Source: a virus
Taxonomy: Duplodnaviria; Heunggongvirae; Uroviricota; Caudoviricetes
Direction: 5' to 3' (one strand)
Length of the DNA stretch: 5,987 nucleotides
IMG/VR virus record: IMGVR_UViG_2695420643_000008
Location: 1 to 5,987 of that record
Below, in pieces: positions 3,731 to 4,326 of this stretch. The notes below the pieces were generated by a model. That model searched no databases and had not been told where the DNA came from. It was given only the letters and a program-made list of their open reading frames with translations. Each line of letters opens with the position of its first letter. Position 1 is the stretch's first letter. A program made the translations under genes and the position numbers.

Positions 3731-4162
3731 ATGTTTGGTATTTTTGGTAAAAAAGCCCGCCGAGCGGCAGTGGAAATTAAAAAGTTTGAGAAACGTGATC
3801 TGGCACAGGCGGTTATTAATGCTGCCTATCTGGTGGCCTATGCAGATGGTGAATGTGAGGCTTCAGAGAAAGCGAAGATCGAGCAGATCTTGCGTAACCA
3901 GCCTGCGTTGTCCGCGTTTACGTCAGAAATTAATGCGATTAGCGCAACCATTATCGGTCAGCTGGATACGAACTTTAAAATTGGTCGTCGAGCGGCATTG
4001 CGTGAAATTGAAGATGTGAAACACGATACGCGTGAAGCGGAAGATGTGCTGGATGTGGCGGTGGCCATTGCGGAGGCAGACGGCGAAATTGAGCCGGAAG
4101 AGCGCAAGGTGCTGGAAGAGATTGCCGGTGTTCTGGGTCTTCGTCTGGAGAATCACCAGTGA
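3731..4162 (+). CDS. TerB-family (tellurite-resistance TerB-like) protein, 143 aa
   Basis: Track ORF 3659..4162; I prefer ATG 3731 because AAGGA sits 8 nt upstream and the N-terminal extension from GTG 3659 looks non-protein-like. Two ADG-centred acidic helical motifs (YADGECEASEKAKIEQIL and EADGEIEPEERKVLEEIAGVLGL) are typical of TerB-like domains. Confidence 0.8.
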   Translation: MFGIFGKKARRAAVEIKKFEKRDLAQAVINAAYLVAYADGECEASEKAKIEQILRNQPALSAFTSEINAISATIIGQLDTNFKIGRRAALREIEDVKHDTREAEDVLDVAVAIAEADGEIEPEERKVLEEIAGVLGLRLENHQ

Positions 4163-4326
4163 CGGTAAAACTGCGCCTGGCTGTGGCTGCACTCCTGCTG
4201 TTTCTGGTGGTGATGGTGGATTTCACCAGCAGAATCATGTCGGTGCTGGCGGATGGGGTGCTGGTCTGCGGCATTGTGGTATTGCTGTGGCCGGTGATAA
4301 AAAGAAACAGCCTGCATAATGCTTGA
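4159..4326 (+). CDS. Small hydrophobic protein (55 aa, two predicted transmembrane helices), translationally coupled to the TerB-like gene
   Basis: GTG 4159 overlaps the TerB stop (GTGA). Translation MTVKLRLAVAALLLFLVVMVDFTSRIMSVLADGVLVCGIVVLLWPVIKRNSLHNA* shows two hydrophobic stretches and a basic C-terminus. Absent from the ORF track, which appears to list only ORFs of about 61 aa or more. Coding status rests on coupling and hydropathy only. Confidence 0.5.
   Translation: MTVKLRLAVAALLLFLVVMVDFTSRIMSVLADGVLVCGIVVLLWPVIKRNSLHNA

Follow-up and report, generated by a model that had tools for sequence, protein, structure and literature searches.

The closest described relatives of the element considered here are the genes tciA and tciB of bacteriophage P1, which stand in the order tciA-tciB-tciC in the P1 record, with an overlap of 1 nucleotide (nt) between tciA and tciB, and whose names we take from the notes of the P1 GenBank record. 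All three genes were non-essential in a genome-wide CRISPR interference screen (PMC10695390). TciA belongs to the TerB family, and TerB has been described as the partner of TerC and as a membrane-attached or amphitropic protein (PMC11003894; preprints), while the plasmid ter cluster protects against phages and pore-forming colicins in addition to tellurite. TerB-domain proteins are also found in the validated defence systems Bunzi, Shango and Dionysus, the last of which (DinA/DinB/DinC) combines a TerB-like protein with a pore-forming effector that has multiple transmembrane (TM) segments (preprints). We analysed a 5,987-nt stretch of viral DNA (positions 1 to 5,987 of the IMG/VR record IMGVR_UViG_2695420643_000008), hereafter the window, in which an initial annotation made from the letters of the sequence had pointed to a TerB-like open reading frame (ORF) overlapping a 55-amino-acid (aa) ORF for a small membrane protein. 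This pair is almost certainly a lambdoid-prophage copy of phage tciA/tciB, and the gene pair is already known, having been named in the P1 genome annotation. The novelty implied by the initial annotation was therefore not borne out, as the pair corresponds to P1 tciA/tciB, has its own Pfam and PHROG families, and carries RefSeq annotation at 100% identity. The 901 bases around the pair are 100% identical in complete Escherichia coli genomes of O26, O145 and other strains, where the NCBI pipeline names the products 'tellurite resistance TerB family protein' and 'DUF3927 family protein', so that the small ORF had not been missed by length cut-offs, as had been supposed. The existence of the pair is thus not new, and its interest lies in the role of phage-borne TerB proteins and of their 55-aa DUF3927 partner. 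Our best overall explanation, which we hold with slightly better than even confidence, is that this tciA-tciB copy would serve as a translationally coupled, non-essential device of lytic growth at the inner membrane.

In the window, tciA encodes the 143-aa TerB-family protein on the plus strand at 3731..4162, from the ATG at 3731 to the TGA at 4160-4162 (the Prokaryotic Genome Annotation Pipeline, PGAP, calls the same ORF), and tciB encodes the 55-aa DUF3927 protein at 4159..4326 (+), from the GTG at 4159-4161 to the TGA at 4324-4326. The tciB start and the tciA stop share a 4-nt GTGA overlap at 4159..4162 (+), where the junction reads ...CAC CAG TGA / GTG ACG...; the overlap and both sets of ORF coordinates given in the initial annotation matched the sequence and the ORF list exactly. 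Both genes are intact. Direct reading of the sequence placed an AAGGA Shine-Dalgarno (SD) element at 3718..3722 (+), 8 nt 5' of the tciA ATG, and a second SD, GGAG, was located at 4147..4150 (+), 8 nt 5' of the tciB GTG, with a predicted anti-SD duplex of -6.4 kcal/mol. The P1 and window versions have in common a TerB protein of ~141-143 aa with a DUF3927 protein of 54-55 aa immediately after it, a stop/start overlap (-1 nt in P1 vs -4 nt in the window), tRNA genes adjoining the pair, and placement in an operon of lytic growth. They differ in that the P1 pair belongs to the C1-repressed ban operon, whereas the window pair is part of the Q-dependent late region in a lambdoid prophage, and in that a tciC homologue is absent from the window, as it is from the N4-like and Klebsiella versions. 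A 31-aa ORF at 4319-4414 (+) was considered as tciC and rejected, as it did not align with P1 TciC and falls inside the match to the small RNA family STnc100 described below. This ORF overlaps the end of tciB by 8 nt and is probably not a gene; frameshifts in a few IMG/VR loci fuse it to tciB, giving products of 84 and 94 aa.

The TerB identity first proposed for TciA was borne out by a score of 61 bits against Pfam TerB PF05099 (cut-off 24.4) over residues 26-138. TciA also matched PHROG 632 ('tellurite resistance') over its full length (E=1.2e-68) and the solved Klebsiella TerB 2jxu_A over residues 15-137 (E=4.1e-8), and it is 42% identical to P1 TciA. Hydropathy gave no TM segment, and the protein is soluble and acidic overall (27 D/E vs 20 K/R) with a basic, amphipathic N-terminus that carries 8 K/R in its first 22 residues and has a hydrophobic moment of 0.5-0.65. 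Two acidic ADGxxxxxE motifs are present, 38-ADGECEASE-46 and 116-ADGEIEPEE-124, and motifs of this kind reportedly form a metal site. Within them, D39, E46 and E124 were invariant in four phage types. Residues 87-139 matched the NCBIfam DjlA model (E=5.2e-7) with 29.5 bits, far under the 162-bit family cut-off. A single-sequence AlphaFold2 model was all-helical and too poor for fold comparison (predicted local distance difference test, pLDDT, 54; predicted template modelling score, pTM, 0.29). The ratio of nonsynonymous to synonymous substitution rates (dN/dS) for tciA was 0.06-0.10, indicating purifying selection.

The partner, TciB, scored 62.3 bits against Pfam DUF3927 PF13064 (cut-off 25) and matched PHROG 1470 ('TciB-like inhibition of cell division or resistance to colicin') with E=4e-30, and its identity to the TciB proteins of P1 (50%), N4-like phages and phage 434 was 50-60%. 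A search of solved structures with TciB gave no match. Hydropathy placed two hydrophobic stretches at residues ~7-20 and ~26-47, split by the conserved D21-F-T-S-R25, and both tails are basic (K4 and R6; K48 and R49). Among 27 diverse sequences, L14, D21, F22, T23, D32, L35 and P45 were invariant, and the dN/dS of tciB (~0.4) also indicates purifying selection. The presence of a small membrane protein downstream of TerB, as first described, is supported by these features.

Conservation of the pair was followed with profiles that were built from phage proteins and run over every fetched locus. The diversity sample consisted of a species-level genome scan, phage records and contig look-ups, and the IMG/VR scans, which returned near-identical E. 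coli loci only, were used for allele counts. TerB followed directly by DUF3927 was found in E. coli lambdoid prophages (the window, L001 and ~170 IMG/VR loci), in a Klebsiella lambdoid prophage with the order Q-TerB-DUF3927-holins, in P1 and P1-like plasmids, in a D6-like Salmonella plasmid-prophage, in the virulent N4-like phages Pollock and FSL SP-076, in the ~181-kb Salmonella phage Arash and, in a weak form, in the Erwinia jumbo phage ChrisDB. When one genome per species was scanned, all 14 full-length loci carried the pair, a 15th locus being cut by a contig end, and the species included Pseudomonas lundensis and members of Enterobacter, Citrobacter, Rosenbergiella, Erwinia, Buttiauxella and Pantoea. 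The TciA proteins of these loci were only ~40% identical to that of the window. The -4 junction (GTGA/TTGA) was present in 170 of 186 paired loci, and the others had junctions of -1 (TAATG/TGATG), 0, +3, -8 or -11, for a range of -11 to +3 nt once two outliers in the script output were set aside, +8 (L174, which contains TAATG and was read as -1) and -191 (L139). A 4-nt overlap is by itself common in operons; the tight junction recurs, however, in all of the TerB-DUF3927 pairs examined, in phages of unrelated types, which argues that the window overlap goes beyond chance. Conservation of the overlapping pair in homologous prophages had been proposed as a check by the initial annotation, and the tight junction was indeed kept across the Enterobacterales set.

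These junctions bear on whether the two proteins are made together, and we lean towards the view that tciB translation is largely coupled to tciA termination. In homologues from other genera and phages, the SD before tciB was mostly worth 0 to -3.3 kcal/mol (a single locus, L169, reached -5.6), and the tciB start outside the E. coli type was often GTG or TTG. Termination-reinitiation coupling is favoured because the SD is weak or absent and the start is GTG or TTG in most homologues. The window tciB has its own GGAG at the right spacing, so that coupling as judged from the ribosome-binding site gave a mixed answer when set against the weak SD of the homologues, and in the E. coli type the GGAG would also let tciB initiate independently. 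RNA folding at the junction was no more stable than that of shuffled sequence (z=+1.0). The co-translation expected from the initial annotation thus finds support as probable coupling, in the -4, -1 and 0 junctions together with the weak SD outside the E. coli type. The 'fixed stoichiometry' that it attached to co-translation fails as a rule, given that the window tciB has its own GGAG, that tciB occurs without TerB in the 434 type, and that tciA pseudogenes stand upstream of intact tciB.

The assignment of the pair to a prophage late region stands, as it is located between the antiterminator Q gene and the esterase and lysis genes. The Q gene (1112..1498, +; Pfam PF06530, 162 bits) defines a late operon with tciAB, and a terminator-like hairpin with a T-run at 3574..3594 (+), upstream of tciA, delimits the unit on its 5' side. 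The interval from this hairpin to the tciA ATG gave no sigma-70-like promoter, and expression is therefore most likely by Q-antiterminated late transcription. The dependence on Q, the C1-repressed ban operon of P1 and the presence of the pair in N4-like and jumbo phages without lysogeny together argue for a role in lytic growth rather than in lysogenic conversion. In 933W-type Shiga toxin (Stx) phages, where Q is followed by tRNAs, stx, esterase and lysis genes, the place of the window pair is taken by stx.

In the mechanism that we propose for the coupled lytic-growth device, TciB would insert in the inner membrane as a hairpin with both termini in the cytoplasm (N-in/C-in), with D21-F-T-S exposed on the periplasmic side and D32-G33 within the second helix. 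TciA would act on the cytoplasmic face of the same membrane, on the model of TerB with TerC and of the TerB domain in membrane-anchored DjlA. Together the two proteins would make up a dispensable lytic-growth device that shields the infected cell's membrane and, through it, phage development and lysis timing, and the insults guarded against would be the entry of superinfecting phage DNA and pore-forming colicins, not tellurite. The parts of this proposal are not equally secure. We regard joint action of TciA and TciB at the membrane as evenly balanced between true and false, and give joint membrane action and largely coupled tciB translation, taken together, about an even chance. That the role of the pair is protection or exclusion is the specific reading that we find likeliest, yet a tentative one, to which we give well under an even chance. 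The membrane-stress, superinfection-exclusion and abortive-infection roles suggested by the initial annotation draw some support from the analogy with TerB-containing defence systems, but PADLOC placed the pair in none of these.

Several observations weigh against a coupled pair acting jointly at the membrane. Pseudomonas phage PMBT3, Vibrio phage K481 and Rhizobium phage TM16 have an unpaired TerB gene with a terminator-like hairpin and T-run directly after it, and Pseudomonas phage AF has an unrelated one-helix (1-TM) ORF after TerB; the DUF3927 profile gave no match within 1.5 kb on either strand in any of these four phages. Homologues of TerB lacking the downstream ORF, which the initial annotation had named as evidence that would count against the pair, are therefore found in distant Pseudomonas, Vibrio and Rhizobium phages, and nowhere in the Enterobacterales set. 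In addition, phage 434 and a considerable number of E. coli prophages carry tciB but no TerB; their tciB lies 86 nt after the gene for a 247-aa multi-pass membrane protein (precomputed Pfam label PF27470 'TfpB'), has a TTG start with no SD, and occupies the same place downstream of Q (L003 1612-2599; L188-L192). This 434-type tciB may be a remnant. In the database protein P0002 the two tciB types are joined as a chimera, indicating recombination inside tciB. With regard to structure, the evidence on the two-helix protein of the initial annotation is divided: hydropathy gave two hydrophobic stretches, and AlphaFold2, run with a 27-sequence alignment, modelled TciB as one uninterrupted helix over residues 2-54 (pLDDT 90.6) with no turn. 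Hydropathy and the positive-inside rule suggest the N-in/C-in hairpin with DFTS toward the periplasm, and the AlphaFold2 model does not support it. If TciB is N-in/C-in, its conserved residues would moreover face the periplasm or the membrane interior and not the cytoplasm of TciA, unlike a simple anchor. Our literature searches gave no functional experiment on any homologue. Finally, tciA is disrupted in hundreds of complete E. coli genomes, and it is disrupted with tciB intact in 28 of the 47 unique haplotypes that were chosen by their TciB match.

The state of tciA in these haplotypes bears most directly on the foremost alternative, which is that TciB alone is the working part, a small protein of the inner membrane that blocks or modulates some process there, and TciA an optional regulator that can be lost or replaced. 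We consider this alternative unlikely, with perhaps the strength of a serious minority view. In the 47 haplotypes chosen by TciB match, tciA was intact in 19, had codon 46 altered from GAG to TAG in 16, was frameshifted by an A6 to A7 change in 10 and was otherwise damaged in 2, while tciB was intact in 40 of the 45 haplotypes chosen by TciA match; both samples were picked by similarity to one partner and exact matches were counted per record, so independent loss events cannot be counted from these figures. The two disrupted sites are intact in the window, where the A6 run covers tciA codons 7-8 (3749..3754, +) and the GAG codon of E46, a residue invariant in the TciA alignment, is at 3866..3868 (+). 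Exact matches of the disrupted alleles were found in at least 554 complete-genome records for A7 and at least 69 for TAG, and this exact recurrence in many complete-genome records indicates that the disruptions are not sequencing errors; the A6 homopolymer could be a slippage hot-spot. Intact 5' haplotypes had exact matches in 103 records (window type) and 375 records (a second type). The locus as such was present in ~770 of 5426 complete E. coli genomes (766 at >=80% coverage; ~14%), with a median of three copies, and a figure of 2849/5426 genomes was rejected as a count of the pair, being overstated by flanking sequence that also matches.

A working TciB with a dispensable TciA would account for tciB without TerB in phage 434 and related E. 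coli prophages, and for all 29 unique haplotypes with disrupted tciA (29/29) having the tciB ORF, its GGAG and its GTG unchanged. It also fits the PGAP annotation of a TerB pseudogene beside an intact DUF3927 gene in 3/3 strains inspected (O157:H7 PV15-279, AMSHJX01 and E2865; L197-L199), and the better conservation of TciB (50-60% identity) vs TciA (27-42%) between distant phages. On the other hand, every Enterobacterales tciA that was found has tciB at its stop codon, usually without an SD of its own, an arrangement hardly expected of a TciA that did not matter. A few mutational events that have spread (one frameshift and one nonsense change) account for the tciA disruptions, tciB is a 2.6-fold smaller target whose survival may be chance, and the 434-type tciB, with its TTG start and missing SD, may be the remnant mentioned above.

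A second alternative, which we consider improbable, is TerB-based abortive infection, in which TciA would sense the perturbation of the membrane by a phage and free or activate TciB as a membrane-damaging effector, protecting the lysogen population. The TerB-domain proteins of Bunzi, Shango and Dionysus, with the multi-TM pore-former of the last, and the phage and colicin resistance given by the plasmid ter cluster are consistent with such a role. However, PADLOC-DB 2.0, which includes Bunzi and Shango, returned only a weak match of TciA to PDC-S48 (E=0.0056, 13.8 bits) and no match for TciB. The virulent N4-like and jumbo carriers and the position in lytic operons, with no promoter of its own detected, are also unlike a defence expressed in the lysogen. 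Hundreds of genomes carry a null tciA with a translatable tciB, which argues against TciB as a toxin restrained by TciA, although the late-operon position may keep tciB expression off in lysogens and so limits this argument.

Alternatively, the two genes may be passengers with no current function here, kept by linkage and recent spread. Such an origin would sit well with the frequent tciA pseudogenes of E. coli prophages, with the dispensability of the pair in P1 and with a mosaic, recombining region that has yielded a chimeric tciB (P0002). It is hard to reconcile with two intact ORFs in the window, a dN/dS well under 1 for both genes, and retention of the pair in at least five unrelated phage lineages that include compact virulent genomes, and we give it little credence. 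No less doubtful is the idea that the pair is a component of the lambdoid lysis region and sets the time of lysis in the manner of an antiholin or holin. The lambdoid pair does lie between Q and the holin/endolysin genes, in Klebsiella as the last protein-coding pair before the holins, and TciB is small and hydrophobic with a basic C-terminal tail. Yet in P1, D6-like, N4-like and jumbo phages the pair is away from the lysis genes, no holin family in Pfam or PHROGs was matched, and a class II holin is encoded separately in a related prophage. The product name in the databases and the membership in the TerB family would suggest tellurite resistance, but such a role is very improbable, as no other ter gene was present in the window, in related loci or in 12.9 kb of the identical O26 locus, the tellurite-resistance plasmids of the literature read always carried terB with terCDEF or more, and the authors of a phage genome with a lone terB likewise concluded against tellurite resistance (PMC8421299).

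The window has further features around the pair. A DUF968 gene lies 5' of Q in the window gene order, and a 214-aa ORF between Q and the tRNA genes, at 1547-2191 (+), is weakly WYL-like (Pfam E=0.0096; PADLOC WYL E=0.0013; PHROG 8498). A related genome carries the annotation 'WYL domain-containing protein' under the match to this window, and WYL domains are common in defence regulators. Three tRNA genes at 2715..2964 (+), with a CAT anticodon (Ile according to PGAP), Arg-TCG and Arg-TCT, form a cluster of the ileZ-argN-argO type known from lambdoid and Stx phages, and are followed by two small conserved hypothetical genes, of 74 aa at 3055-3279 (+; PHROG 2571) and of 69 aa at 3332-3541 (+; PHROG 4280), the second of which precedes the hairpin at 3574-3594. 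Beside or around tciAB, tRNA genes were seen in four unrelated phage types, lambdoid, P1, D6-like and Erwinia jumbo (window 2715-2964; L002 1131-1284 and 2716-2791; L193 1469-1620 and 2776-2848; L179 886-1354 and 2947-3277), and this adjacency may reflect only shared cargo of the same insertion hot-spots. A group I intron match (Rfam RF00028, 101 bits) was observed in phage Pollock (L004 3055-3407), a few hundred bases 3' of tciAB.

On the 3' side of the pair, an STnc100-family small RNA (sRNA) at 4334..4503 (+) scored 102.4 bits against Rfam RF02076 (gathering threshold 47) and starts 8 nt after the tciB stop. A terminator-like hairpin with a T8 run at 4528..4546 (+) separates it from the start of a SASA/NanS-p-type esterase gene, which lies 3' of this hairpin and runs off the end of the window. 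The STnc100 family was also found 3' of tciB in a Klebsiella prophage (L185 2711-2899) and an Enterobacter prophage (L167 3867-4070). This STnc100-like RNA might derive from the 3' end of tciAB or from a promoter of its own. STnc100 is related to the PasD sRNAs, which adjoin an esterase gene (2026 preprint).

For practical purposes, the product name 'tellurite resistance' is misleading for tciA, and many E. coli copies of the locus consist of a tciA pseudogene with an intact tciB, which matters for the choice of a copy to work with; the window copy is intact. As a two-gene phage version of ~600 bp, the pair would offer a convenient minimal system for the action of TerB at the membrane. A more speculative extension, to which we attach a low probability, is that it could represent the smallest TerB-based membrane device, a TerB sensor with a 55-aa effector or anchor found in phages of many types, working as a shield of the infected cell's inner membrane against superinfecting phages or pore-forming colicins, or as a decoy that blinds the TerB-based surveillance defences of the host. 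If this were true, the stx-slot position in prophages of enterohaemorrhagic E. coli (EHEC) and the frequent loss of tciA would speak of an arms race of exclusion and counter-defence.

Set beside known systems outside P1, the locus shares single elements with each. T4 Imm-type superinfection-exclusion proteins are, like the proposed role of TciB, a matter of tiny, non-essential inner-membrane proteins, which in their case act on incoming phage DNA or membrane insults; to our knowledge they have no sequence relation to TciB, and we know of none paired with TerB. With Bunzi, Shango and Dionysus, the pair shares a TerB-like gene adjoining a membrane-protein gene, and the logic proposed for those systems is surveillance of the membrane. 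It differs from them in that the window encodes neither the helicase/ATPase of Shango, nor a MAEBL/TM protein, nor the 4-TM pore-forming toxin of Dionysus, and in that those systems reside in bacterial defence islands, whereas tciAB is carried by phages, virulent ones included. The TerB of the ter cluster (Klebsiella, 2jxu) belongs to the same Pfam family as TciA, is of similar length and has two ADGxxxxxE motifs, and association with the inner membrane and its protein TerC has been reported for it. In contrast to the ter cluster, the window lacks TerZ, A, C, D and E, the 55-aa partner bears no relation to TerC, and tciAB is phage-borne, the plasmids that carry tciB being P1-like phage-plasmids and not ter plasmids. 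DjlA, an inner-membrane co-chaperone that combines a TerB-like region with a J domain and an N-terminal TM helix, likewise has a TerB-type region at the cytoplasmic face of the inner membrane; TciA differs in having no J domain, and the membrane element that DjlA holds within one chain would here be a separate polypeptide, TciB.

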